Assembly (NCBI GenBank): GCA_963801665.1 | Contig: CAWDFL010000003.1 | Coordinates: forward strand, 280,901-344,900 | Source of the DNA: an uncultured delta proteobacterium | Lineage (GTDB): Bacteria; Desulfobacterota; Binatia; Binatales; Binataceae | Length of the DNA stretch: 64,000 nt | Direction: 5' to 3' | Shown here: positions 29,694 to 41,934 of the stretch, one piece after another | How positions within the stretch are numbered: the stretch's first letter is position 1 | How the letters are laid out: each line of letters begins with the position of its first letter | Notes under the pieces: generated by a model | Databases searched by the model: none | Told to the model about the DNA's origin: nothing | What the model saw: the letters and a program-made list of their open reading frames with translations, nothing else | Made by a program: the position numbers and the translations under genes

Positions 29694-30767
29694 CTAACGG
29701 AATGCGGGTATCACCTTCGATGCGAATAACTCCAGGTGCGGTTGAATCCAGGCAGGAGGCAAGCCCGGAGGCAGCGTCCACGAGTAGTAGTGAGTCAATC
29801 GCACATTGCTCACATAGTCCCGAATCATCTTGACCGCGGTGTCAGGTTCCACGACCAAAAGCTGGCCCGACTTCCGCAAGCCGTCGCGATCGCGAAGGTA
29901 ACTCAGAGTTAGCGGTTTCGCACCCTCCTTCGCCATTCGCGCGCGGGTTTTTTCGTCGATGCTCTGGAGCGCCTTCACGGTCCAGGCCGCATAGTTATCG
30001 GCCTGATAAACGACGTGGTCAGCGGCCTCATTCCACGTTTTCTCCTGGTCGTCTGAGACGATTAGCCACTGGAATCCGCTGGCCAGTTTTACATGGTCCG
30101 TACTTCTGCCGCGTTTGCGAAGTTCGGCGAGATAGCTCTCGTAAACGGACGGGCTCGCCATCGGCGCGATAAATCCGTCTCCGAAGCGGGCCGCGCGTCG
30201 CAGCGCGGGTTGCGTGAAACCGCCGATCCAGATCGGAGGCCGCGGCTTCTGGATCGGTTCGGGGGTAATGCGCGCGCGAATCAACTCGAAGTAATCGCTC
30301 TTATAGGTAACTGTTTCACCGGCCAGCAGGCGTGAAACGATATCGAGAGACTGATTGGTCCGCGCGCCGGCCTGGCTGTTTGGAATGCCATAACCTTCGA
30401 ATTCCTCGACCTTGTAGCCGACGCCGAATCCCAGATCGAGGCGTCCACCCGAGATAACGTCGACGACCGCGATTTCTTCCGCAAGCCTTACGGGATTCTG
30501 AAACGGCATCAGCATGACGGCGAGGCCAATACGGATCTTCCGGGTGCGCGCGGCAATCGCGGCAGCCACCGGCAGCAATGAGGGCAAGTAGCCATCGTCA
30601 ATAAAGTGATGCTCCGATAGCCAGACGTCGTCGAAGCCGTGATCTTCAGCCCACACGATCTGGTCGAGGATGTCCGTGTAAAGACGATTGGACGGTTGCC
30701 GCCATCGCCCGGGATTACGAAAATCGTAGTACAGCCCGAATCTTAAACTGAGATTATTTGCGCTCAT
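29694..30767 (-). CDS. LLM-class flavin-dependent oxidoreductase (luciferase-like monooxygenase)
   Basis: 357 aa; VWLSEHHF...RIGLAVMLMPFQNPVRLAEE TIM-barrel LLM signature. Confidence 0.85.
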   Translation of the reverse strand: MSANNLSLRFGLYYDFRNPGRWRQPSNRLYTDILDQIVWAEDHGFDDVWLSEHHFIDDGYLPSLLPVAAAIAARTRKIRIGLAVMLMPFQNPVRLAEEIAVVDVISGGRLDLGFGVGYKVEEFEGYGIPNSQAGARTNQSLDIVSRLLAGETVTYKSDYFELIRARITPEPIQKPRPPIWIGGFTQPALRRAARFGDGFIAPMASPSVYESYLAELRKRGRSTDHVKLASGFQWLIVSDDQEKTWNEAADHVVYQADNYAAWTVKALQSIDEKTRARMAKEGAKPLTLSYLRDRDGLRKSGQLLVVEPDTAVKMIRDYVSNVRLTHYYSWTLPPGLPPAWIQPHLELFASKVIPAFR

Positions 30768-30791
30768 CTTTTAAGCCCTTGGGGGGGGTTC

Positions 30792-30805
30792 GTAGTGCTC
30801 ACTAC
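30792..30805. promoter_or_regulatory. 14-bp perfect palindrome GTAGTGctCACTAC in the LLM/TetR divergent intergenic region (candidate TetR operator)
   Basis: Seen directly; immediately follows a G8 homopolymer (30781-30788). Confidence 0.3.
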
Positions 30806-31460
30806 AATTACCCGACGCGGCCGCGCTGAGTCAAGTTTCTTTATCGAGCGCTACAAATTCGCTAAGCTAATGGCCATGGGACGCAAACTCGGGTTCGATC
30901 GCGATCGAGCCATCGATCGGGCAACTAAGGTGTTCTGGAAAAAGGGCTACACCAACGCATCGCTGCGCGACCTGTTGCGCGCGATGGGTATCGGAGAGGG
31001 CTCGTTCTACAACACGGTCGGCAGCAAAAAGCAGTTGTTTATCGAATGCCTTAAGCACTACGAGGACACGGTAGAGCGCAAACGTTTCGATGCATTACTG
31101 GCTGAAGCTTCAGTGAAGAAAGGAGTTCGAGCGTTCTTTAGAAGTGTCCTGGATACTCTCGACGATCCTAGCACTCCGCGCCTGTGTCTGCTGGCAGAGA
31201 GCCTGTCGGGTGACGTACTTCGGGACCGGCAGCTCAAACATTTCGTCGAAAATTCAACGCGGTCGTCATGGCAGCGATCCATCGAGCGTCTGGAATCGGC
31301 AAAAAGCTCAGGCGAGCTGCCTCAGAACTTCGACTCGAAACTCGTGGCCGACGTGCTCATGACGTATCTTCAAGGGCTCTACCGGATAGCTCGGCTCGTC
31401 AAAAGTCGGCGACAAATCGAACGCCAGATAGAGACGCTGCTACAAGCACTCGGGCTGTAG
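30795..31460 (+). CDS. TetR/AcrR family transcriptional regulator
   Basis: HTH (DRAIDRATKVFWKKGYTNASLRDLLRAMGIGEGSFYNTV); the probable start is MAMGRK (~30870). Confidence 0.8.
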   Translation: MLTTITRRGRAESSFFIERYKFAKLMAMGRKLGFDRDRAIDRATKVFWKKGYTNASLRDLLRAMGIGEGSFYNTVGSKKQLFIECLKHYEDTVERKRFDALLAEASVKKGVRAFFRSVLDTLDDPSTPRLCLLAESLSGDVLRDRQLKHFVENSTRSSWQRSIERLESAKSSGELPQNFDSKLVADVLMTYLQGLYRIARLVKSRRQIERQIETLLQALGL

Positions 31461-31508
31461 TCACAGCGCTCCGTCTGGCGCCTGGCGGGACAGAACGCAC
31501 AAGATTCT

Positions 31509-31943
31509 GTGCCACTTGCTCAGGCTCCAAAGGGCCGCCTATCGTTGATGCAGTCATCTTGGACCGAAGGATGGAGGCACCTCGTGGAAAAGGTGAACGT
31601 CGCGGAGAAATTCGATCTGTTCAGCGACTACTGGAGTCCCAAGATCGCCGCTGAGTTGAACGACTCATACGTTAAGTTGGCAAAATTCAAAGGCGAGTTC
31701 GTTTGGCATCATCACGAAAATGAGGATGAGCTGTTCCTCGTGACGAAGGGTCAGCTACTAATAAAGCTGCGCGATAGCGAGGTTGTAGTCGGCCCGGGAG
31801 AATTCGTTGTCATTCCCCGTGGAGTCGAACACATGCCTGTGGCAAAAGACGAAGTCCACGTCATTTTGATCGAACCGAAAACGACCCTGAATACTGGCAA
31901 TGTCGTTGGTGCAAAGACTGTCGAGCGTCTCGAAAAGGTATGA
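31509..31943 (+). CDS. cupin domain protein
   Basis: 144 aa; HHHENEDELFLVTKGQL...GEFVVIPRGVEHMP cupin motifs. Confidence 0.75.
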   Translation: MPLAQAPKGRLSLMQSSWTEGWRHLVEKVNVAEKFDLFSDYWSPKIAAELNDSYVKLAKFKGEFVWHHHENEDELFLVTKGQLLIKLRDSEVVVGPGEFVVIPRGVEHMPVAKDEVHVILIEPKTTLNTGNVVGAKTVERLEKV

Positions 31944-32396
31944 GGTGGTAATGCGGGGAGACGCCAGGACCTTTCGTCGGAGACGAATCTGGTGGATTGC
32001 CTATTCCGAGAGCGGTCGCGAGTATCGAGAGAGTAGCCGCAGCACGGAGAAAAAGCCGCTCGGAAATGCTGCAGAAGCGACTCGCGACTCCGAGAGCGTC
32101 AATCATAGTCCGGGATCTCGCCCGGAGATCCGACCTCGTTCGAGTGCTCGACGGGGATGTGCAGGCACTCTATTCTGATTGCCTGGCAGCCTTGGATCGG
32201 CTGCGCGCTCGTCTCTCTTAGTTGATGGGCGTACTGTCGGCGTGAGGTGCGTCGCGCGCGCTTGACCACGATCCGCAACCAAAAGTAGTTAATTGAATGA
32301 CATCGCATCGAAAAATCCCGTGCCGAGGAACAGCAGCGTTCGGCTCGAACAAAAATCCGGACGTATTTCTGGCGATCCTCTCTCGCCCTCAAAGCC

Positions 32397-33272
32397 TTGT
32401 CGATGACGAGTAACCGTAAACGTGCGGTCGCCGCGACGATGGGCGCTGCTGCAGCGCTTGGCCTGACAGTCGATGATGCGATCGTGCTCCAGGAGTCGAA
32501 CAAGCTCGCTGTGCGCCTGCTGCCGTGCGACGTTCTTGCTCGGGTCGCGGAGGAGCGCATCAAGCGCTGGGCGGAGTTCGAAGTCGAGCTTGCTTTACGG
32601 CTCGCTGAAACCGGGGAGCCCCGTAGGAGCGCTCGATCCTCGGGTCGCGCCGGGCGTCTACATGCGTGACGGCTTTGTGGTCACGCTGTGGACCTACTAC
32701 GAACCTGTGCCGTCCCGAGAGTTCGCGCCAGCCGACTACGCGCACGCTCTCGAACGGCTGCATGACTGCATGCGGCAGATCGACTTCCCTACACCGCACT
32801 TTACGGATCGAATGACGGACGCCCAACGGCTTATCGGAAGCCGCGACCAGACTCCAGAGCTAGTTGACGCGGCAGTGAGCTTCTCAGCAACACGTTACGA
32901 AGTCTGCGGCAGGCGATCAGCGCTCGCGGGCGCCGCGAACAACTCCTGCACGGCGAGCCACACCCGGGCAACGTGCTCAGGACGAAGAAGGGCCTGCTGT
33001 TCATAGACCTCGAGACCTGTTGCCGCGGGCCCGTCGAGTTCGATCTCGCCTACGTGCCCGAAGAGGTGAGCGTGCTCTATCGGAGCACCGATCAACAGCT
33101 GCTCCGCGAATGCCGGGTCCTGATGCTTGCGATGGTCGCAGCATGGCGCTGGGATCGAAACGACCAATTCCCCAACGGGCGACAAGCAGCGCGAGAATTC
33201 GTCAGCGAACTCCGGGCGGCACTGTCGGGCGCACCGTTCTCGACGCACTTGCCGCGCTGGACTGACACCTGA
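32397..33272 (+). pseudogene. aminoglycoside/choline-kinase-type phosphotransferase (APH family) with two frameshifts
   Basis: Three consecutive overlapping ORFs in three frames (32397..32669, 32473..33006, 32973..33272). The last carries the ...LLHGEPHPGNVL...LFIDLET... catalytic-loop motif of the APH/protein-kinase-like fold. Confidence 0.55.
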
Positions 33273-33651
33273 ATCGCTGGTGGACGATAAAAATTGGAGC
33301 TAGTTCGTCGAGATCTTTGCCCCACTAAGTAATGACGTCCATCTTTTCCGCCAACTCGCGCTTGGACTACGCCATTAGGTGAGTGTAAGTGTCGGCAGTA
33401 AGCTGGATTCTCGAGTGCCCAAGTATCTCCGAAATCATTCGCATTGGATAAGATAGCGCGCGGCGCTACGACAACAAGGGCGATCGTGAATCGAGCGTTA
33501 CTCAAACCGTACTTCACCGGGCTTTAAGAATATGTCGCCTTAGACTCATGATCCGGCTTAAACAACCGGATGGTGACACCGTGACACAGAACGCCGACGG
33601 ACGCTCCAGCGAATCGGTATCTTCTTAACTATCTGATTTTATTAGCTTTCT

Positions 33652-33727
33652 TGGAGCCACCCGTCGGATTCGAACCGACGACCTGCTGATTACGAATCAG
33701 CTGCTCTACCAACTGAGCTAGGGTGGC
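33652..33727 (-). tRNA. tRNA-Thr (anticodon CGT)
   Basis: 76 nt: GCCACCC-TA-GCTC-AGTTGGTA-GAGC-A-GCTGA-TTCGTAA-TCAGC-AGGTC-GTCGG-TTCGAAT-CCGAC-GGGTGGC-T-CCA. All four stems are Watson-Crick; anticodon loop TTCGTAA; CCA encoded. Confidence 0.85.
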
Positions 33728-33860
33728 CCCGCCGCGATTGCGCGCGCGCCGATAGGACTCGGCTGAATGCCGAGATTAGCGGACCCTCGCGCGCCGGGAA
33801 AGAGAGACCTTGGCGCCGGCGTCTTGAGACTCGGCGGGATCGAGCCGAAGATGAGCCTCG

Positions 33861-34739
33861 ATGGACGGGCTCCCGGGATTTCGCGCTGCGTATCATGAGA
33901 CCTTCGCACGCCTCTACGAGCGTAGCGCCGCCCGGCGCTGGAGAATTCCCGAAGCCGATTTTGCGCAGACGATCGAGCGCGCGATCGAGCGCCAATTTGC
34001 CGGCGCTATCCCGAATCCCGCCGAAATTGAAATTTTCCTCGACTCGCTCCATGTCGAGGACCTTGCGCTCGCAATGGCATGCCGCGCGGGGAACGCCGAG
34101 GCGTGGCGCGAATTCGACGCGCGTTACCACGGCGCGATCGAGAGCTTCGTGCGCGCGATTGCGCGCGATACGGATCGAGCTCGCGAAATTGAAAGCTCCC
34201 TGTACGGCGATCTTTTCGACGTCGCGCGAGTAGGTAATCCGCGCCGCTCCCCGCTCGATTACTATCATGGCCGAAGCTCGCTCGCCGCGTGGTTGCGCAT
34301 CGTGATCGTGCGGCGGGAGGCCGATTGGCTGCGCGAGCGTTACCATGCGAATGCTGCCGCGGCCGCTGCCGCCGAGCCGATAGCGAGTGGCGATCGCAAT
34401 CACTCGGCGCCCGCCGATCCCGATCGCGCGCGGTTTATCCCGATGCTCGCAAAGGCGCTCGACGCCGCGCTTGCCGAGCTCGAGGCGCGCGACCGTCTTC
34501 GTCTCTCTTATTACTACGTGCAAGGTCTCACGCTTGCGGAATCCGGCGTGCTGCTCGGCGAGCATGAATCGTCGGTATCGCGAAACCTTGCGCGAATCCG
34601 CCTCGCGATTCGGCTTAGAGTCGCGCGCGAGCTCAAGCGCGAGCATCATCTGAGCGACGAACAAATCACGCGCTGCTTTGAATTTGGAACCGACGATTGG
34701 CCGTTCGATCTCGGACGGGCGCTTTCGCAGGCAAAGTAA
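33861..34739 (+). CDS. ECF-like sigma-70 family sigma factor
   Basis: Region 2-like (VEDLALAMACRAGNAEAWREFDARYHGAIESFVRAI) and region 4 HTH (LRLSYYYVQGLTLAESGVLLGEHESSVSRNLARIR). Stop overlaps the start of the next gene (TAATG). Confidence 0.7.
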   Translation: MDGLPGFRAAYHETFARLYERSAARRWRIPEADFAQTIERAIERQFAGAIPNPAEIEIFLDSLHVEDLALAMACRAGNAEAWREFDARYHGAIESFVRAIARDTDRAREIESSLYGDLFDVARVGNPRRSPLDYYHGRSSLAAWLRIVIVRREADWLRERYHANAAAAAAAEPIASGDRNHSAPADPDRARFIPMLAKALDAALAELEARDRLRLSYYYVQGLTLAESGVLLGEHESSVSRNLARIRLAIRLRVARELKREHHLSDEQITRCFEFGTDDWPFDLGRALSQAK

Positions 34740-36166
34740 TGGCTAATCCCATAAACGGCGGAGACGGCGAAAATAGCGAAGTGGGAAATGACGCGCTCGA
34801 CGCGCTGACCGCGCGCCACCTGGCCGAAGGGCTTGATGCGTCCGGCCGCGATTGCCCCGACGCCGACGTGCTCGCGACGTTCGCTACCCGCTTGCTGGAT
34901 GCGGACGAATATTCGCGCTGGGAACATCACGCGGCGCAGTGCGTGCTATGCCAACGCAACCTCGCGGCTCTCGCGCGCAGTGGCGTCCTCGACGCTCCCA
35001 AAAGGCCCGCGCTGCCGGCTCTCGCACAAGACGATTCTGACGACGACTCCGAGCTATCGCCCCACGGCGAGGACGAGGGAATCGTCGCCTCGCTTCGCCG
35101 CGGGTTCAGATTCATCGTGGGTCCGTTTCCGCTTTCAGTCGCGATCCACCTCGTTCTGATCATGCTGCTGATCATCACGGTGCACGAGCAGCGTGGACGC
35201 GAATTTATCATGGTCAATCTCGAAGCGGGCGGTGGCGGCGGCGGCAACGAGATGCAGGATCTCGACATGCCTGAAGTGCCGATGCCCGACACCGCGCCGC
35301 AACAGATGGACAATCCGCAAGCGGTCGATACCTCGCAGGCTGTAGGCATGGCCAACGACTATGTGCGCGCGGCCGGCGGCGGCGGAATCGGAATCGGGCG
35401 CGGCGGCGGAATGGGTTCAGGCTACGGCCACGGCATTGGATCGGGCTTCGGCGGATTTATCGGAGAACTTCGGCGCAAGGGTCTGGACGTGGTGCTGGTG
35501 ATCGACGGCACCGGTTCGATGGGTCTGATCATCAACGACGTGAAGGCCAAGATGGGGCAGCTCATCCAGGCGATCCATCGCCTGGTTCCAATCGCGCGCG
35601 TCGGCATTATCGTGTTTGGCGGCAAGGGCGAGAAGATGGAGATCCAGCCGCTCACGCTGTCGCCGCAGAAGCTGACCGACTTCTTAAACGGCATTACCGC
35701 GAAAGGCGGGGGCGAATGGGAAGAAGATACTTTCGGCGCGTGCGAAACCGCGATCGACAAGATGGACTGGAAGCCGTACGCGAAGAAGGTGGTGGTGCTG
35801 GTAGGTGATTCGCCGCCGCGCAAGGAGGATTTCGCGCCGCTGATCGCGATGATCCGCAAGTTCAAGAGCGAGAACGGGACTTTCAACACCGTCGATGTGG
35901 CGGCGGAAGAGCACGAGCGCTTCGAGCGCGAGTTCTGGTTGAAGGTGCATCGCGAGGAGCCGCCGAAAATCACGCCGTTGCCCGAGTTCTATCAGCAGAC
36001 GCGCGCCGCCTATAAGGTGCTCGCCAACGCAGGCGGCGGTGCGATGCGCTCGCTCACGCACGACTCGCATATCAACCAGCAGGTGCTGATCCTCGCCTTC
36101 GGCGAGCAGTGGCAGAACCAGGTCTCCGCCTTCGGCCGGGGGATCAGTTCCGCCAGTGGCCCCTAG
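34739..36166 (+). CDS. anti-sigma factor (zf-HC2) - TM - extracytoplasmic VWA domain protein
   Basis: N-terminal HHAAQCVLCQ zinc motif, TM helix (FPLSVAIHLVLIMLLIITV), Gly-rich linker, VWA/MIDAS (DVVLVIDGTGSM...). The ORF track extends to 34697. Confidence 0.7.
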   Translation: MANPINGGDGENSEVGNDALDALTARHLAEGLDASGRDCPDADVLATFATRLLDADEYSRWEHHAAQCVLCQRNLAALARSGVLDAPKRPALPALAQDDSDDDSELSPHGEDEGIVASLRRGFRFIVGPFPLSVAIHLVLIMLLIITVHEQRGREFIMVNLEAGGGGGGNEMQDLDMPEVPMPDTAPQQMDNPQAVDTSQAVGMANDYVRAAGGGGIGIGRGGGMGSGYGHGIGSGFGGFIGELRRKGLDVVLVIDGTGSMGLIINDVKAKMGQLIQAIHRLVPIARVGIIVFGGKGEKMEIQPLTLSPQKLTDFLNGITAKGGGEWEEDTFGACETAIDKMDWKPYAKKVVVLVGDSPPRKEDFAPLIAMIRKFKSENGTFNTVDVAAEEHERFEREFWLKVHREEPPKITPLPEFYQQTRAAYKVLANAGGGAMRSLTHDSHINQQVLILAFGEQWQNQVSAFGRGISSASGP

Positions 36167-36259: not shown

Positions 36260-37417
36260 ATGAACCCGTACCTGTTCGCATTGATAGCGCTTTGCCTCTC
36301 GATAATCGTCGTCACTGTCGCGATCCGGCGGCTTAGGCGCCGCGAGGATGTCGGAGCGGGCGTGATTGCGAGTGCGGTCCGGTTTGTCGGCGGTCCGTTT
36401 CCGCTTTCGGTCGCGATTCACGTCGGCGCGCTGCTGTTCCTGATTATCACGGTTCACGAAAGCCGCGGACGGGATCTGATCCTGGTCAATCTCGAAGCGG
36501 GCGGTGGCGGAGGCGGTGGCGATGAGATGCAGAAGCTCGACATGCCTGAAGTTCCGATGCCTGACGTCGCGCCGCAGCAAACCGAGCTGCCGCAGACAGA
36601 CGACACGGCGCAGGCCGTCGCGCTCGCGACCGACTACGTACGTTCCGAAGCCGGCGGGATCGGGATAAATCGAGGCGGCGACGGACTTGGCACCGGGCAC
36701 GGCCCGGGCTTCGGTGGCGGATGGGGCGGGTTCATCGGCCATCTTCGCCGCAATGGACTGGACGTCGTGCTGGTGATCGACGGGACCGACTCGATGCGGC
36801 TGGTGATGGCGGACGTCAAGGCGCGGATGAAGGAGCTCGTCCGCGCGATTCAGCGTCTGGTTCCTACGGCGCGGGTTGGAATCGTTGTTTACGGTGGCGA
36901 GGGCGAGCCGCTCGACGTGCAGCCGCTCACGCTATCGCCGGCGAAGCTCGACGCTTTCTTGTCCGCGATCCAGACCAAAGGCGGCGGCGAGTGGGAAGAA
37001 AACACCTACGGCGCGATGCAGGCCGCGGTCGATCGGATGGACTGGAAGCCCTACGCGCGCAAAGTGATCGTGCTGGCCGGCGACGCGCCGCCGAAGCAGG
37101 ACAAGTTCGCGGCGATACTCGAACTCGAGCGCAAATTCCGCGCCGAAAACGGCACCGTCAGCGTCGTCGACCCGACCGCGCAGGAGCATCAGCGCTTCGA
37201 GCACGAGCTCAACATCCGCGTGCATCGCGAGGCCAACTCCGCCGCCGCGCCGATGCCCGCGTTCTATCAGCAGGCGCGCGCCGCCTTCGCCGTCATCGCG
37301 CACACCGGAGGCGGCGAGATGCGCAGTCTCGAAGGCGACGAGGCGATCAATCAGCAGGTGCTAATAATGGCGTTCGGAAGCAAGTGGCAGGAGCAACTCG
37401 CGGCTTACGAAAGATAG
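36260..37417 (+). CDS. TM + VWA domain protein, tandem paralog of the anti-sigma C-terminal region
   Basis: ~75% identical to the downstream gene over the TM-linker-VWA region (FPLSVAIHVGALLFLIITVHE...LEAGGGGGGG...DVVLVIDGTDSM) but lacks the cytoplasmic zinc-finger domain; AGGAGG RBS. Confidence 0.75.
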   Translation: MNPYLFALIALCLSIIVVTVAIRRLRRREDVGAGVIASAVRFVGGPFPLSVAIHVGALLFLIITVHESRGRDLILVNLEAGGGGGGGDEMQKLDMPEVPMPDVAPQQTELPQTDDTAQAVALATDYVRSEAGGIGINRGGDGLGTGHGPGFGGGWGGFIGHLRRNGLDVVLVIDGTDSMRLVMADVKARMKELVRAIQRLVPTARVGIVVYGGEGEPLDVQPLTLSPAKLDAFLSAIQTKGGGEWEENTYGAMQAAVDRMDWKPYARKVIVLAGDAPPKQDKFAAILELERKFRAENGTVSVVDPTAQEHQRFEHELNIRVHREANSAAAPMPAFYQQARAAFAVIAHTGGGEMRSLEGDEAINQQVLIMAFGSKWQEQLAAYER

Positions 37418-37655
37418 GCGCGAGGGTGCCGCACTGGTTGCCGGTCTTGCTCATAGTGCGAAGCGATCGCGCGCTCAGATCGGCAAATTAGAGGGGTGCG
37501 GCGATAGGTCTTCAGCTGCCGTCCAAACCGGAGGGCAACCGCGTGGGCATTGGCCCGTGGAAGTCTCACAATAGACTAGAGGCTGAGTGCTTCGGTTGGT
37601 ATGATAATCGCGATCCAAGGAGTGGTGCTGGGCCGGAAGCAGCCAACGCAGACGA

Positions 37656-38342
37656 ATGTTTCAAAGAGAGTCTGAAATGACTGGGTTCGTGGCGAGCTGG
37701 ATAAAGGCCAATGGCATGACGGCCAAGCCGGAGTTTGTGACACCTTGGGGTATTTGCGATTTCGTCGGACTCCGCTTTAATCCAGAAAAAGTAACACGCC
37801 GCCTCCAACAAAAACAAATGCGGGCGATTAGTTCCGTCACCCGTGCACTTTTGCTGCTTCAAATTCCCGATGTAGAGACGAAACGATCAATCACTCTCGA
37901 CAGCCTCATTCGGAGCTATGCGCCATTTATTTCCGAAGAAGTCGTCTGCAGGGAAACATCTCGCCTGATCGCTGACCGATATGTTACTTCTTCCGCGCAC
38001 CGGCGCTTACAAAAGGTTAACGGCTGGATGCCTCTACAAGACCGGTTGGTCGCTGTTGAACTAAAGCTCTCGCGAGTGGACGAAGCAATGCGTCAAGCGG
38101 TGAATAATCTCGGATTCGCAGACGAGTCGTACGTGGCGTTGCCGGCCGACGTAGCACGGCGTGTCCTGGCGACCTCGACCCGTTGGTCGAAGTTCTTCGA
38201 TGTGGGTGTAGGCTTGTTAAGCGTCGCGCGCCGTGGCTGCGAGGTTCTGCGGCCGGCGCAAAAGACCGGAAACGGGACGGACAAGGCAATTCAACTTTAC
38301 TGCATCGAGAAATTCTGGAGCACCCGTCTTAAAGGCAACTGA
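37656..38342 (+). CDS. hypothetical protein, possible PD-(D/E)XK nuclease fold
   Basis: ~50% GC gene inside the low-GC island. ICDFVG ... LVAVELK spacing resembles the D...(D/E)xK nuclease motif, but this is a weak inference. The real start may be MTGF (~37677). Confidence 0.45.
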   Translation: MFQRESEMTGFVASWIKANGMTAKPEFVTPWGICDFVGLRFNPEKVTRRLQQKQMRAISSVTRALLLLQIPDVETKRSITLDSLIRSYAPFISEEVVCRETSRLIADRYVTSSAHRRLQKVNGWMPLQDRLVAVELKLSRVDEAMRQAVNNLGFADESYVALPADVARRVLATSTRWSKFFDVGVGLLSVARRGCEVLRPAQKTGNGTDKAIQLYCIEKFWSTRLKGN

Positions 38343-39510
38343 GCATCAATGGTTCTGCTACAGCTTCAAGTCTGCGCGCCGTTCCTTCATCAGTGATCTC
38401 TGGAAGCGACTTTCCGAGAGCGTAAGCTGCGGATAGGTCTTGGAAAAGCGCCATCGATCGGCCGGCTTTGGGGGTAATCGCGATGAGATCAATCCATTGT
38501 TTGTAAAACCTAGCGATCTGTTCTCTCGCAGCATCAGGGGCGTTCAGCGCTGTATACTGCCTCTTGATCTCGGTGAATTCTGCGCGCGTCGGATGCGAAG
38601 CGGCAAGCTTCGAGATCGCTGCGTCGAGCCAGACCTTGAATTGGGGCCCAATGCCAACGCGTCGCCTTAGCGAAGGGAGTGCCAGCCTTACTTTTGGCTG
38701 ACGGGCGGGACTCCCGGCCAAAAAGTATTGGTATCCCGAGCCGATGCCGATAGCAGGGTGATCGACCAAGCCCTTCGCCCATAAGACCAAGTTAAGACCC
38801 CAATAGGGCCCGGCGATCCTGATTTTGGACGAAATGCGCTCGTTAAGTTCCTGGTGAAGGTCTATAAGGGCGCCGAAACGCTTTTTGAGCGTCGAGGAAC
38901 CACTGTCGTCCGTGAGACTGCTGTCCACGACCCAAAACCCATCCGCCCCAGCTTCGTGATAACACCGTTCAGCCTGTTTTACTTTCGGGTTCCGCGCCAC
39001 TTTGCCGCTAACCTGGTTTTGGTGCGTGAAAAGTATAGGGAGGATCAGCTTCCCAGAGAATCCGTTGGCGCTTTTCCATCTCCCAGCCGCTGCCGCCAAG
39101 AATCGATTGATCTTATTGCGGCCGGAACCATTCACTACTGGTAGCTGGGGCACAGTTATCCATGCCGGTCTGTATGTAACGCACCTATCCAAAACAGCTT
39201 TCACTAACGCGTTTACTTCCGATGAGAGTGGTATCCCCTGATAGTCACCCGCGCCGATTTTCTCGAAGTTTATGAACGTTCTCATAAAGTCGAACCAACC
39301 ATTCCTCTTGTCCGGTCGGCTCCGTCGGCTCACGAGATCATCCATCCCGTCGATGGCGGGATCTATCCACACCTTAAATGAGTCATCTAGAATGCGCAGA
39401 AAATTAGTCGCCCGATCCAAGGGCACGCGGACCATCTCCGAATCCGGATAGATTTTTCGCGCGAGTCTGCAGGTTTCCTCGCCCGTGACGAAGGGAATGT
39501 ATTCCGCCAT
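38329..39510 (-). CDS. hypothetical 393-aa protein (no family recognised)
   Basis: Long clean ORF at ~52% GC, co-oriented with and 8 nt upstream of the FRG-domain gene. It converges on the previous gene with a 14-nt overlap. Confidence 0.6.
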   Translation of the reverse strand: MAEYIPFVTGEETCRLARKIYPDSEMVRVPLDRATNFLRILDDSFKVWIDPAIDGMDDLVSRRSRPDKRNGWFDFMRTFINFEKIGAGDYQGIPLSSEVNALVKAVLDRCVTYRPAWITVPQLPVVNGSGRNKINRFLAAAAGRWKSANGFSGKLILPILFTHQNQVSGKVARNPKVKQAERCYHEAGADGFWVVDSSLTDDSGSSTLKKRFGALIDLHQELNERISSKIRIAGPYWGLNLVLWAKGLVDHPAIGIGSGYQYFLAGSPARQPKVRLALPSLRRRVGIGPQFKVWLDAAISKLAASHPTRAEFTEIKRQYTALNAPDAAREQIARFYKQWIDLIAITPKAGRSMALFQDLSAAYALGKSLPEITDEGTARRLEAVAEPLMLSCL

Positions 39511-39518
39511 TGTTTACC

Positions 39519-40334
39519 TCATAGTCCTGCCGTCCGACGCACATGAGCGCAGACGTGTTCGGGTTCGGGAAATATGAACATCTCCCCGATGCCGACCCTC
39601 TCCAACTCGTTCAGCAGCGACATCTTGTGCTCACGCAGAATGGGCACGTAGAGAAGAGAACTGGCCTGCTGCCAATCGAGGTCGAACTTACGCGAACCAT
39701 GCAGCGTGAACGCTCCTTGCTGCATAGCAATGCGCTCGTTGTTCCACGTTGGATTGATTGCAATCGTTCGTCGTCCGCGAGTGTGAATTCGACCATCTAG
39801 TTTGAAGTAGTTCTTGATGATGTTCGAGTCCCGTTCCAAGTCGAACACTCGTGGCGATCTCGCGTCGGTACTTTGGTTAAGCTCAATCGGATTGAGGATC
39901 ACCACCAGTCCGTCAACGTCCGGGTATTTGCAACAAGCGAAAAAAAGCGCAACCGCCGCGTTCTGGGTCCAGTCCAATAGCCGGGTGGGGAGCCCATAGT
40001 GCTGAGCAACCTGCATCCATCCTAATTCGTTATCAGGGGCTGGTGGGCGTGATAGCTTCATTTCCAAGAATCGCTTCATGTCGGCAACGAGTCCGAGTGC
40101 TCGGTCCCTTTCCTCGGGTTCGCCATATCGGAGGGCGGACGGGGCAAGCCGATAGGTCAAATCAGGATGCCCGCGAAACCAGAACAAGTTGTTTGGCTCG
40201 AGAAGAGAGTGAAACACGCCGAAAAAATCGCTCAGCGTTAAAATCAAGTCGTCCTTAAATATTGGACAATCGAGCCCGCAATTTCGATAACGATTTGATA
40301 GCTTGCGGCGATCCTGACCGGTTGTGGACGGCAT
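39519..40334 (-). CDS. FRG domain protein
   Basis: 271 aa at ~48% GC; LFWFRGHPDLTYRLAPSALR and GLPTRLLDWTQNAAVALFFA match the conserved FRG-domain core. Confidence 0.7.
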   Translation of the reverse strand: MPSTTGQDRRKLSNRYRNCGLDCPIFKDDLILTLSDFFGVFHSLLEPNNLFWFRGHPDLTYRLAPSALRYGEPEERDRALGLVADMKRFLEMKLSRPPAPDNELGWMQVAQHYGLPTRLLDWTQNAAVALFFACCKYPDVDGLVVILNPIELNQSTDARSPRVFDLERDSNIIKNYFKLDGRIHTRGRRTIAINPTWNNERIAMQQGAFTLHGSRKFDLDWQQASSLLYVPILREHKMSLLNELERVGIGEMFIFPEPEHVCAHVRRTAGL

Positions 40335-40608
40335 ATGAGATCATCCCTATGGTTTGAGTTGGTTTTCTTCACCTGAGTGTTGGCGATTCCGTCGGAATGC
40401 GTCATCTGGGAATGCGTTCTTGAAAACAACCTTTGTAAACTCTTAGTGAGTGGCCGCGAGTTTATGAGGGACAGAGCGACGCGGCAAGCAAAATAGATCG
40501 CTAAGGCTAGTGCTGGGCCGGTCGCGGATCTGCTTACGGCGCCGATCAGTGAAAAATGACGCTACCGTCGGCGCACACTTCGTATTAGCGGCACTCGAGC
40601 GGTGCCAT

Positions 40609-41934
40609 TCATGGTGCGAAACGCTCGCGCGTCCAGTTGGCCAGCACTTTCATCAGGCGCGGACGCGGATCGCCGAGATGCGCTTTCGTGCCGCCGGCGC
40701 GCATGAAGTGATCGGCGCCCTCGATGAATGCGATCGTCTTGTCGCCGGCGCCCGACGCCTCGAACTCCGCACGCACGTCGGAGAGAAAAATATCCTGGTC
40801 CGCATTCGCGCCGACGATCAGCGTCGGCGCCGTGACTTTGGGCAGGTTCACCGCGGTCTTCGCGTACGACGACAGCCCCGACCAGGTCGATAGCCACGCA
40901 TCGGGCGTGACAATCCGTCCAAGCCCGAACGCCGAGTAGTTCGCGAGGTCCGGACGCGGGGAAATGATCGATCCGACGGCGCGCTCGGACGGATCGATCG
41001 ACAGATCGCAGTAATTCGGATTCGCCTGCGTGCGATAGACGATCATGTAGGTCGGCGCCATCGCGCGGCGCGCGGCGAAATTTCTGCGCGCGGGCGGTAT
41101 CGCGGCAAAATCCTTGTCGCGCATGATCGCGCGCGAAGAACTCGCCTCATCTATATGCCGCCGCGCGATCGCGTCGATCCGCGCGCATCGCGAGCGTTGC
41201 GCCGCGCGATACCGCTCGACGAACTCCTTCGAATAGGTGCTCGCGGCGGGCGGCGTGCGAAATCCGTTAGCCTCGTCATACATGTCGAGCGCCGCGTCGG
41301 ACGCGATCGGATCCGATTCGTCAACCACCGCCGCGTCGAGGCAGCTCATCAGGACCATTCCCTGGCCCGGATGCGCCGCCAGCATGATAAATCCGTCGCA
41401 CAACGGCAGCTCGAACTTGTTCAAGTCAGGAGGACCGCCCGCCGGAGGCGCCGACACGCGCTGACCTTTCGGCGTGCGCGCCTGAGCGTCGTAATAGGAG
41501 AACAGCGATCCCCCGCCCGAGTTGCCGAGCATCACGATATGTTCGAAACCTTCTTCCTCGCGCAGAAATTTTACTCCCGCCGCGAGGTCGAGCAGCAGAT
41601 CCTCGTGCAGCATCATCGCGTCGTTGTTCAAGTAGCGCGTGTTGAGCGCGAATGCCGCGAAGCCCGCCTCGACCCAGTACGGAATCGAGTAATGGGTCGA
41701 GAAGTCGGCGCGCGGATGCGACATGATCACGACGGTGCGCGGCTTTCCCTTCGGCGGCATCCACAGCACGCCGCGCGATTTACCAAGGTCCGCGGCGTAG
41801 AGCTGAACGACGCGCTGGCGCACATCTGGATTGATGTCGCCGAAATCGATCGGGTAACGGACGGGATAATCAGCCGGCGCCTTAGGCATCGCGTTCACCT
41901 CGCTCGCTCGCCTTATAGCAGGAAAGCGGCGCAC
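40609..41934 (-). CDS. alpha/beta hydrolase family protein
   Basis: GNSGGGS nucleophile elbow; the probable start is MPKAPADY (~41889). Confidence 0.7.
   Translation of the reverse strand: MRRFPAIRRASEVNAMPKAPADYPVRYPIDFGDINPDVRQRVVQLYAADLGKSRGVLWMPPKGKPRTVVIMSHPRADFSTHYSIPYWVEAGFAAFALNTRYLNNDAMMLHEDLLLDLAAGVKFLREEEGFEHIVMLGNSGGGSLFSYYDAQARTPKGQRVSAPPAGGPPDLNKFELPLCDGFIMLAAHPGQGMVLMSCLDAAVVDESDPIASDAALDMYDEANGFRTPPAASTYSKEFVERYRAAQRSRCARIDAIARRHIDEASSSRAIMRDKDFAAIPPARRNFAARRAMAPTYMIVYRTQANPNYCDLSIDPSERAVGSIISPRPDLANYSAFGLGRIVTPDAWLSTWSGLSSYAKTAVNLPKVTAPTLIVGANADQDIFLSDVRAEFEASGAGDKTIAFIEGADHFMRAGGTKAHLGDPRPRLMKVLANWTRERFAP

Follow-up and report, generated by a model that had tools for sequence, protein, structure and literature searches.

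In DarTG, a toxin that ADP-ribosylates DNA is paired with an antitoxin enzyme able to take the mark off again. Restriction-modification (R-M) systems are commonly arranged with the nuclease gene under a separate promoter and convergent on the modification operon. Cap9 and Cap10 form the ancillary pair of Type IV CBASS, responsible for deazaguanylation of the CD-NTase; Cap10 is a TGT-fold protein without a zinc site that acts on a partner protein and not on nucleic acid, its basic patch having been lost and its partner being bound through an acidic helix. Catalysis by TGT and DpdA depends on two aspartates, one a general acid/base and the other a nucleophile that forms a covalent ribosyl intermediate, and DpdA requires DpdB and ATP (PMC10164549). 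The preliminary description of the locus studied here held that FRG-domain proteins have no established biochemical function; a prediction nevertheless exists, since published work assigns the domain to the ADP-ribosyltransferase (ART) superfamily and suggests that it may be an NADase or an effector (PMC9503650, PMC12522546); PADLOC lists it as the candidate PDC-S15. Our search of the literature found no paper characterising an FRG-containing system.

In the stretch of 64,000 nucleotides analysed here (the window), an FRG gene stands beside two further genes, A and B, in an islet of low GC content, and all three reading frames are present where the preliminary description had placed them. That description had GC falling from about 67% to about 50%; the low GC is real, but the size of the drop was overstated. 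Mean GC of the trio is 0.536 against 0.622 in the 5 kb on either side, 300-nt windows give 0.47-0.58 within it and 0.60-0.68 outside, and no other 2.9-kb stretch of the window is as low in GC as the trio (0.53 versus 0.60, z = -2.8). Third codon positions follow the same pattern, with GC3 of 0.58-0.61 in the trio genes and 0.78-0.79 in both flanking genes. The flanks are as described, comprising a sigma70-like gene, two VWA genes and an alpha/beta-hydrolase gene (a weak match), to which YchF can be added.

Features of the islet, in window coordinates
Feature	Position	Strand	Description
Whole islet	37418..40608		VWA-gene stop to alpha/beta-hydrolase-gene stop; delimited by composition and by the same trio with unrelated flanks elsewhere
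Gene A	37656..38342	+	228 aa, predicted PD-(D/E)xK nuclease
Gene B	38329..39510	-	393 aa, basic, predicted TGT-like (beta/alpha)8 barrel with C-terminal helical domain
Gene C (FRG)	39519..40334	-	271 aa, carries the FRG domain; described in the literature as ART-superfamily-like
A/B 3'-end convergent overlap	38329..38342		14 bp
FRG-to-B junction	39511..39518	-	8 nt, SD-like GAGG overlapping the FRG stop codon
Candidate promoter of A	37577..37610	+	-35-like TAGAGG 37577-37582, -10 TATGAT 37600-37605; 5' leader about 50 nt; consensus evidence
Candidate FRG-B operon promoter	40459..40487	-	TTGCCG, 17 nt, TAAACT; leader about 125 nt

The same three genes, and always these three, recur in about 90 sequenced loci. 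FRG adjoins B in all 52 loci with room for it, which bears out the proposed co-conservation of the pair, and A adjoins in 63 of 63, while the identities of B span 37-79%. Pairwise identities of the three proteins are correlated at 0.83-0.93, most tightly for FRG and B (r = 0.93). No neighbour family is common to more than two of 29 loci, so that the trio lacks a fourth conserved partner, and its surroundings change at essentially every locus, which speaks against B being a housekeeping enzyme in conserved synteny. Homologs number in the hundreds and keep fixed lengths, and they are rare (308 clusters at 50% identity among 1.84e9); a single-sequence scan of GTDB genomes gave at least two loci. 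The hosts, among them Binataceae, Planctomycetota and Phycisphaerae, are scattered patchily across phyla. Horizontal acquisition, as originally proposed, is supported because the GC of the trio lies below that of its flanks in 23 of 24 loci, because the trio occurs in several host groups and because some loci have integrase, primase or transposase neighbours. B is found neither in PLSDB plasmids nor in GenBank phages, and the two IMG/VR contigs that carry it resemble host defence islands. The trio is a self-contained, horizontally mobile module, inherited as a unit and with fixed geometry. As to the route of insertion, the sole tRNA gene (Thr) lies 4 kb away and tRNA-linked integration was rejected. 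In the window the trio lies between the two copies of a perfect 12-nt direct repeat, but a general target-site duplication was rejected as well, since the left copy lies inside the 5' leader of A and a bracketing repeat beyond chance occurs in only 3 of 30 loci.

The fixed geometry extends to the gene junctions. The tight 8-nt spacing of FRG and B noted earlier was confirmed (TGAGGTAAACAATG); the gap has this length in 34 of 61 loci, with TGAGGTRA..ATG conserved, an arrangement indicating that the two genes are translationally coupled. At the other end of B, the overlap with A was measured at 66 loci, of which 43 have exactly 14 bp and 11 have 20 bp. A TATAAT-like box (at least 5 of 6 positions) lies 30-80 nt 5' of A in 40 of 57 loci, compared with 12.7% of shuffles, and often reads TA[GAT]AATCCGAT, which points to a conserved promoter of A's own. 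For the FRG-B operon, the region 40335-40608 had been named as the likely promoter. A sigma70-like motif is indeed present there, but it is weak, with 8 of 12 consensus matches and under the threshold of the scanner, and its hexamers, with a variable spacer, are conserved among the closest relatives only (the window and loci L001 and L007). A generic scan for promoters and terminators gave no signal above shuffles, and the FRG-B leader has no Rfam match in a search for riboswitches and structured leaders, nor is its folding unusual (z = 0.11).

The FRG protein is the best conserved of the three (mean pairwise identity 0.60). Its domain assignment is secure (Pfam PF08867, E 9.2e-21, 75 bits against a cut-off of 25, residues 51-138), and both motifs on which it had been recognised are present, W-F-R-G-H at residues 52-56 and LLDWT at 119-123. 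Invariant residues are W52, R54, G55, R69, R88, Q111, H112, D121, W122, T123, R201, Q205, H212, E251, E257 and H260, and F53 is conserved below the 95% threshold. We conjecture from this pattern that R54, T123, E200 (about 90%) and Q205 could form an ART-type NAD+-binding triad. The protein matches the PDC-S15 model PDLC04938 (E 1.2e-45, FRG residues 28-268) together with 13 more PDC-S15 models, as well as phrog_4962 (E 4e-33); PDC-S15 is a single-gene candidate, whereas the FRG of this lineage is always joined to B and A (52/52 and 63/63 loci). None of the three proteins matches the DarT (PF14487) or Macro families of Pfam. The FRG domain itself is widespread, occurring on hundreds of plasmids and in some temperate phages; stand-alone homologs were found on 415 plasmids and in temperate phages, and these proteins are only 27-33% identical to the FRG of the trio.

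In protein A, the D...ExK arrangement first seen by eye is real and invariant in the family (D35, E135-x-K137), and E5 and Q147 are invariant too. Fold comparison of the structure model upholds the suggested restriction-endonuclease-like (PD-(D/E)xK) fold, and places a winged helix (residues ~43-122) between core strands beta2, which carries D35, and beta3, which carries E135-x-K137. The best structural match is the uncharacterised protein SPO1766, and the repair nuclease NucS is also among the matches; by sequence, A matches neither Mrr nor any of the nuclease families in Pfam, and it has no relatives in the PDB. On the model, A is predicted to be a catalytically intact PD-(D/E)xK nuclease.

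Protein B, which had been assigned to no recognised family, does lack one at the level of sequence: it has no match in Pfam and NCBIfam at E <= 1, its profile retrieves no TGT from PDB sequences, hhalign against E. coli TGT gives a probability of 0.3%, no sequence or profile similarity to DpdA appears by these means, and an exact-protein look-up of the window's copy returned no record. The DNA retrieved for the analysis contains no TGT genes. Its structure model, however, gives a TGT-like fold. B represents a new family, predicted to form a (beta/alpha)8 barrel with TGT-type elaborations, whose nearest structures are TGTs; its top three structural matches include DpdA, which acts as DNA-guanine transglycosylase in the Dpd R-M system. 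D50 (100% D) and position 196 (100% D/E) stand at strand C-termini, D54 and D201 are also conserved, and by strand order in the model D50 could correspond to the acid/base Asp of TGT. The C-terminal zinc site CxCxxC...H is absent, the only such residues conserved being C183, C392 and H219, which make no such cluster, and the strand 251-255 (AIGIGSGY), by order the nucleophile strand of TGT, has no conserved acidic residue. B may therefore be no transglycosylase at all. The protein is uniformly basic (pI 8.6-10.1); A is basic too. We judge the chances evenly balanced that B acts on nucleic-acid bases.

Defence-type neighbours occur in 12 of 38 loci, an enrichment that reaches significance only for a background rate of about 15% or less, and some two thirds of loci are embedded among ordinary metabolic genes. 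These neighbours include GmrSD and a Type I R-M system 35 bp upstream; Hma/DUF1156-DUF499 systems are near in four loci, and also found are BrxC, a Type III methylase, ThsB-TIR, a methylase-RhuM-helicase cluster, an MmeI-like methylase and DUF4062-TIR. A and B are in no PADLOC-DB v2 model. Two decayed copies, the only ones and both on metagenome contigs, bear on the roles of the genes: L028 has lost FRG and kept B and A, and L079 is missing FRG and the first 160 residues of B but retains a full-length A with its motif. Cells therefore tolerate A without its two partners, and FRG is the member that is dispensable or costly. An apparent FRG-B fusion (P0097, 672 aa) proved to be a read-through reading frame over the deleted FRG gene in L028.

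What could be the function of such a module? We regard the trio with good confidence as a candidate conflict or defence module, most likely directed against phages or mobile elements and with a chemistry centred on nucleic-acid bases. FRG would supply an NAD+-using, potentially harmful activity, ADP-ribosylating a base in DNA or RNA or consuming NAD+. B would bind nucleic acid and break or exchange the N-glycosidic bond on the same target, thereby completing the mark of FRG, or else reversing or limiting it, like DarG but by TGT-like chemistry. A, expressed from a transcript of its own, would dock through its winged helix and cut DNA bearing the mark or lesion, and not DNA without one. The logic would be to 'mark (or damage), edit and cut' and not that of self-protective restriction-modification. 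This particular casting of FRG as writer, B as editor and A as cutter is tentative, held at clearly less than even confidence, and it does not explain how self is spared. A bolder version, in which the trio is a new immune class where FRG writes an NAD+-derived adduct, the zinc-less TGT-fold B excises or exchanges the base or excises phage 7-deazaguanine-type bases, and the winged-helix nuclease cuts the edited site, seems to us unlikely.

The strongest competitor is abortive infection or a toxin-antitoxin arrangement, in which FRG would be an NADase or ADP-ribosylating toxin, B a Cap10-like protein partner that holds, modifies or neutralises it instead of working on nucleic acid, and A a second effector or sensor. 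The precedent of Cap10, a zinc-less TGT-fold protein that binds a partner enzyme, makes this attractive, as do the coupling and closest co-divergence of FRG and B, the loss of FRG in both decayed copies with B never missing where FRG is present, and the single-gene FRG homologs working elsewhere (PDC-S15, plasmids, phages). Yet B is basic where Cap10 has lost its basic patch and uses an acidic helix to bind its partner; B also carries enzyme-like invariant residues and exceeds the typical size of an antitoxin, and the strict co-conservation and invariant active site of A are left without a role; we find the reading rather doubtful. A miniature Dpd-like R-M system, with B and FRG installing a protective base modification by exchange and A restricting unmodified DNA, appears improbable. 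The rank of DpdA among the structural matches of B, the basic character of B, the convergence of an independently promoted A on the FRG-B operon and the frequent proximity of other R-M systems would all suit it, but A persists without FRG in L028 and without FRG and most of B in L079, and a nuclease retained after loss of the modification arm should be lethal under R-M, so that the decayed copies argue against it. So do the absence of a DpdB-like ATPase, of preQ0-pathway genes and of any fourth conserved gene, and in B the lack of the zinc site and of sequence similarity to TGT or DpdA.

We give equally little credence to a role outside defence, either as a mobile cassette for DNA repair or nucleotide salvage (one that, for instance, takes out an ADP-ribosylated or otherwise damaged base before the strand is incised) or as a purely selfish addiction module. 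Metabolic genes do surround most loci, TGT-fold or glycosylase-like chemistry could serve repair, and the structural matches of A include NucS and the uncharacterised SPO1766; against this, the trio is rare and patchy across phyla, its composition is consistently foreign, FRG holds defence-candidate status, and R-M, BREX, Hma, TIR and integrase genes repeatedly adjoin it. Spurious reading frames abound in GC-rich DNA, but chance or annotation artefact is refuted here by hundreds of fixed-length homologs, confident structure models of A and B, invariant motifs and unbroken synteny (52/52, 63/63).

How, then, does the candidate defence module relate to described systems? Like Dpd (DpdA/DpdB/DpdC and DpdD-K), it has a predicted TGT-fold protein in a defence-type cluster with a nuclease function, and B is basic like a nucleic-acid binder. 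It has three genes to the approximately eleven of Dpd, however, its B lacks the sequence similarity and the zinc motif, an FRG protein takes the partner position, no DpdB ATPase (ParB-like), DpdC or preQ0 genes are among its neighbours, and its decayed copies contradict R-M logic. With the Cap9/Cap10 pair it shares a TGT-fold protein without a zinc site, a probable anti-phage use and tight pairing with another enzyme, but neighbour censuses find neither a CD-NTase nor a QueC-like Cap9 nor a Cap effector within or close to the trio, and B is strongly basic where Cap10 has lost its basic patch. As in DarTG, an ART-superfamily gene (in the trio a putative one) comes first, followed by an apparently co-translated second enzyme, in a mobile and defence-associated setting, and natural decay of the trio removes the ART-like gene; B, however, has a predicted TGT-like barrel instead of a macrodomain, and an obligatory nuclease is added. 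The FRG protein matches PDLC04938 over its full length, but PDC-S15 is a single gene, whereas here FRG always comes with B and A. Mrr-type (Type IV) enzymes, like A, combine a winged helix and a PD-(D/E)xK core in one polypeptide, and A resembles them in being tolerated without partners; the winged helix is N-terminal in Mrr and, on the model, inserted between core strands in A, without any sequence match.

If the defence function is true, the FRG domain gains its first tractable genetic context with obligatory partners, and does so in only three genes and 2.9 kb, a compact system that brings its promoters with it and is directly clonable. In the bolder version, 'mark, edit and cut' would be distinct from R-M, DarTG, Dpd and CBASS, newly joining two chemistries of the N-glycosidic bond. 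The invisibility of the B family to sequence methods suggests that defence islands conceal further base-handling enzymes of this diverged kind, and the enzymes might be useful as tools if B exchanges or excises specific DNA bases. Given a defence function, B would add to DpdA (base exchange in DNA) and Cap10 (protein deazaguanylation) a third way in which immunity uses the TGT fold.

The trio of genes A, B and FRG is well supported as a self-contained mobile conflict module comprising an ART-like protein (FRG), an enzyme with a predicted TGT fold (B) and a putative winged-helix nuclease (A). ORF calling of the window places the three frames exactly where the preliminary description had put them, with 8 nt between FRG and B and a 14-bp overlap between the convergent A and B. 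The module is the lowest 2.9-kb stretch of the window in GC (0.533 against 0.603 for the whole window; z = -2.8), and GC3 is 0.58-0.61 in the trio, whereas the VWA and hydrolase genes on either side reach 0.78-0.79. The fall from 67% to 50% reported earlier is present, but those figures are extremes of 300-nt windows, the means being 0.62 and 0.54. Flanking genes are a sigma70-like gene and a pair of paralogous VWA genes, as well as YchF and a gene that weakly matches alpha/beta-hydrolase. The closest genome, a Candidatus Binataceae MAG, carries B at 97% and A at 95% identity, together with the VWA neighbour.

Coordinates of the trio and of related features in the window and in other loci
Feature	Sequence	Position	Strand	Length
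Gene A	window	37656-38342	+	228 aa
Gene B	window	38329-39510	-	393 aa
Gene FRG	window	39519-40334	-	271 aa
B C-terminal codons	window	38329-38349		
Direct repeat, left copy	window	37625-37636		12 nt
Direct repeat, right copy	window	40510-40521		12 nt
sigma70-like gene	window	33861-34739		
VWA paralogues	window	34697-36166; 36260-37417		
Second low-GC stretch	window	30200-33730		
tRNA-Thr(CGT)	window	33652-33727	-	
A/B spacer	L096	9185-9440		255 nt
Hma-like system	L039	1423-9087		
Hma-like system	L046	2317-9153		
Hma-like system	L091	1-5790		
Hma-like system	P0012 locus			
Operon upstream of trio	L094	1-7133		
Decayed copy	L028	1551-2931		
Decayed copy	L079	9938-11378		

Several other features of the window deserve mention. 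The VWA genes are tandem paralogues with a common glycine-rich membrane-proximal region (..VNLEAGGGGGG..EMQ.LDMPEVPMPD..) and lie downstream of the sigma70-like gene, in the same order as in the Binataceae MAG L005. Another low-GC stretch (0.51-0.55), ending at a tRNA gene, carries genes for a TetR regulator and a cupin protein, besides three small ORFs without Pfam match; no integrase was seen in it, and it may be a further small acquired islet. A perfect direct repeat, GTGCTGGGCCGG, brackets the trio (shuffle p about 0.005). Its left copy sits within the 5' leader of A, 3' of the promoter, and similar bracketing repeats occur in only two of 29 other loci (14 nt in L040, 11 nt in L063); it is probably not an insertion scar.

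A metagenome profile scan yielded 80 loci with B identities of 37-79%, further loci came from other look-ups, and synteny was counted over 76 non-redundant loci, scored where the contig leaves room. FRG lies directly upstream of B on the same strand in all 52 loci with room, and A lies downstream of B, convergent, in 63 of 63. Of 66 loci, 43 have a B/A overlap of exactly 14 bp; the 8-nt gap from FRG to B, with the conserved TGAGGTRA..ATG, recurs in 34 of 61. The pairwise identities of A, B and FRG are correlated (0.83-0.93), most tightly for FRG and B, and no neighbour family beyond the trio recurs in more than two of 29 loci. A promoter-like element precedes A, its -10 box being found in 40 of 57 loci versus 12.7% of shuffles. 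The weak TTGCCG-17-TAAACT motif 5' of FRG is kept only among the closest relatives, and the FRG leader has no Rfam match and no unusual structure. A rare non-overlapping arrangement of A and B occurs in a 12.7-Mb contig (L096), where the trio neighbours an MT-A70 methylase, an integrase, SSB and a DUF4062-TIR gene.

The GC of the module is below that of its flanks in 23 of 24 loci, several copies are flanked by integrase-primase blocks or transposases, and among the hosts given by the sources are Binataceae, Planctomycetota, Phycisphaeraceae and the cultured Rosistilla carotiformis Poly24, whose copy lies around Poly24_28550. B was not found in PLSDB plasmids or GenBank phages. Two contigs catalogued as viral in IMG/VR, L087 (UViG_3300048587_000597) and L088 (UViG_3300048836_000712), have a Type I R-M system around the trio, together with genes for glycosyltransferases or methyltransferases; none of their scanned genes is a recognisable phage gene, and they probably represent islands of host DNA or have been misclassified. 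Restriction or defence-type neighbours were present at 12 of 38 loci with usable flanks: GmrSD, a complete Type I R-M system at a distance of 35 bp upstream, Hma/DUF1156-DUF499 systems at four loci, BrxC, a Type III methylase, ThsB-TIR, a methylase-RhuM-helicase cluster, an MmeI-like methylase and DUF4062-TIR. This enrichment is suggestive, reaching significance only with a background rate of about 15% or lower. At four independent loci an Hma-like system (DUF1156-methylase and DUF499/HmaC-like ATPase) stands immediately upstream of the trio; the distance is 18-57 bp at L039 and L046. Either both are carried jointly by one island, or they favour one integration site. In L094, a single operon upstream of the trio encodes a 1262-aa UvrD-like helicase, an HSP70/MreB-like ATPase and two unknown proteins, with an MmeI/Eco57I-like methylase downstream of the trio; the arrangement may be another uncharacterised defence cluster.

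Neither A nor B has a match in Pfam, NCBIfam, PADLOC-DB v2 or PHROGs. The B family is closed: clustering at 90% identity gives 431 clusters, and at 50% it accounts for 308 among 1.84 billion representatives. Almost every member measures 390-400 aa, and no domain fusions occur among those listed. At the sequence level B shows no relationship to TGT: Pfam and a PDB profile search give no match, hhalign returns 0.3%, and the CxCxxC...H zinc site is missing. Conserved positions include D50 (100% D) and 196 (100% D/E), both at strand ends, besides D54 and D201, and numerous Trp, Tyr and Arg residues are invariant. The pI is basic throughout the family (median 9.4, minimum 8.6). B looks like a nucleic-acid-binding enzyme. 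Its far C-terminus (..EPLMLSCL-COOH) is near-invariant family-wide at M389, L390, C392 and L393, and the codons of this tail fall in or beside the 14 bp shared with the 3' end of A. A functional tail, a double coding constraint or both may be responsible.

The FRG protein matches Pfam FRG (E 9.2e-21), the PADLOC candidate PDC-S15 over its full length (E 1.2e-45) and phrog_4962, a family of unknown function. Distant homologs, at 27-33% identity, frequently occur as stand-alone genes of conjugative plasmids and are found on temperate phages too, in one P2-like phage in the region after the replication gene, a known defence-cargo hotspot. The Frg family has been assigned to the ADP-ribosyltransferase superfamily and predicted to act as NADase or antiviral effector (PMC9503650, PMC12522546).

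How might the three proteins act together? We tentatively favour a scheme in which FRG would write an NAD+-derived mark or damage onto nucleic acid, B would edit, complete or reverse it through glycosidic-bond chemistry, and A would cleave DNA carrying the mark. Decayed copies bear on the division of roles. In L028, FRG is deleted past about codon 59 and joined straight to an intact B, with A present; the 672-aa database protein P0097, considered as an FRG-B fusion, is a read-through ORF of this locus. In L079, FRG and residues 1-160 of B are gone, A retains its full length and its catalytic motif, and an MBL-fold gene abuts the B stump. These two copies (n=2 only) speak against models where FRG and B shield the host from A or where FRG is an antidote; they fit FRG being the costly or harmful part and A doing no harm when FRG and B are absent.

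The TGT fold has an immune precedent in Cap10 (10.1101/2025.04.06.647259), and FRG could instead be a toxin under the control of a Cap10-like B, a doubtful reading. DpdA is a further precedent (PMC10164549), and that the trio is a Dpd-like R-M system appears quite unlikely. Repair, salvage or pure addiction is an improbable explanation. The literature searched contained no experimental account of an FRG-containing system and no description of the trio. The trio is a candidate defence system whose component families and combination are new.
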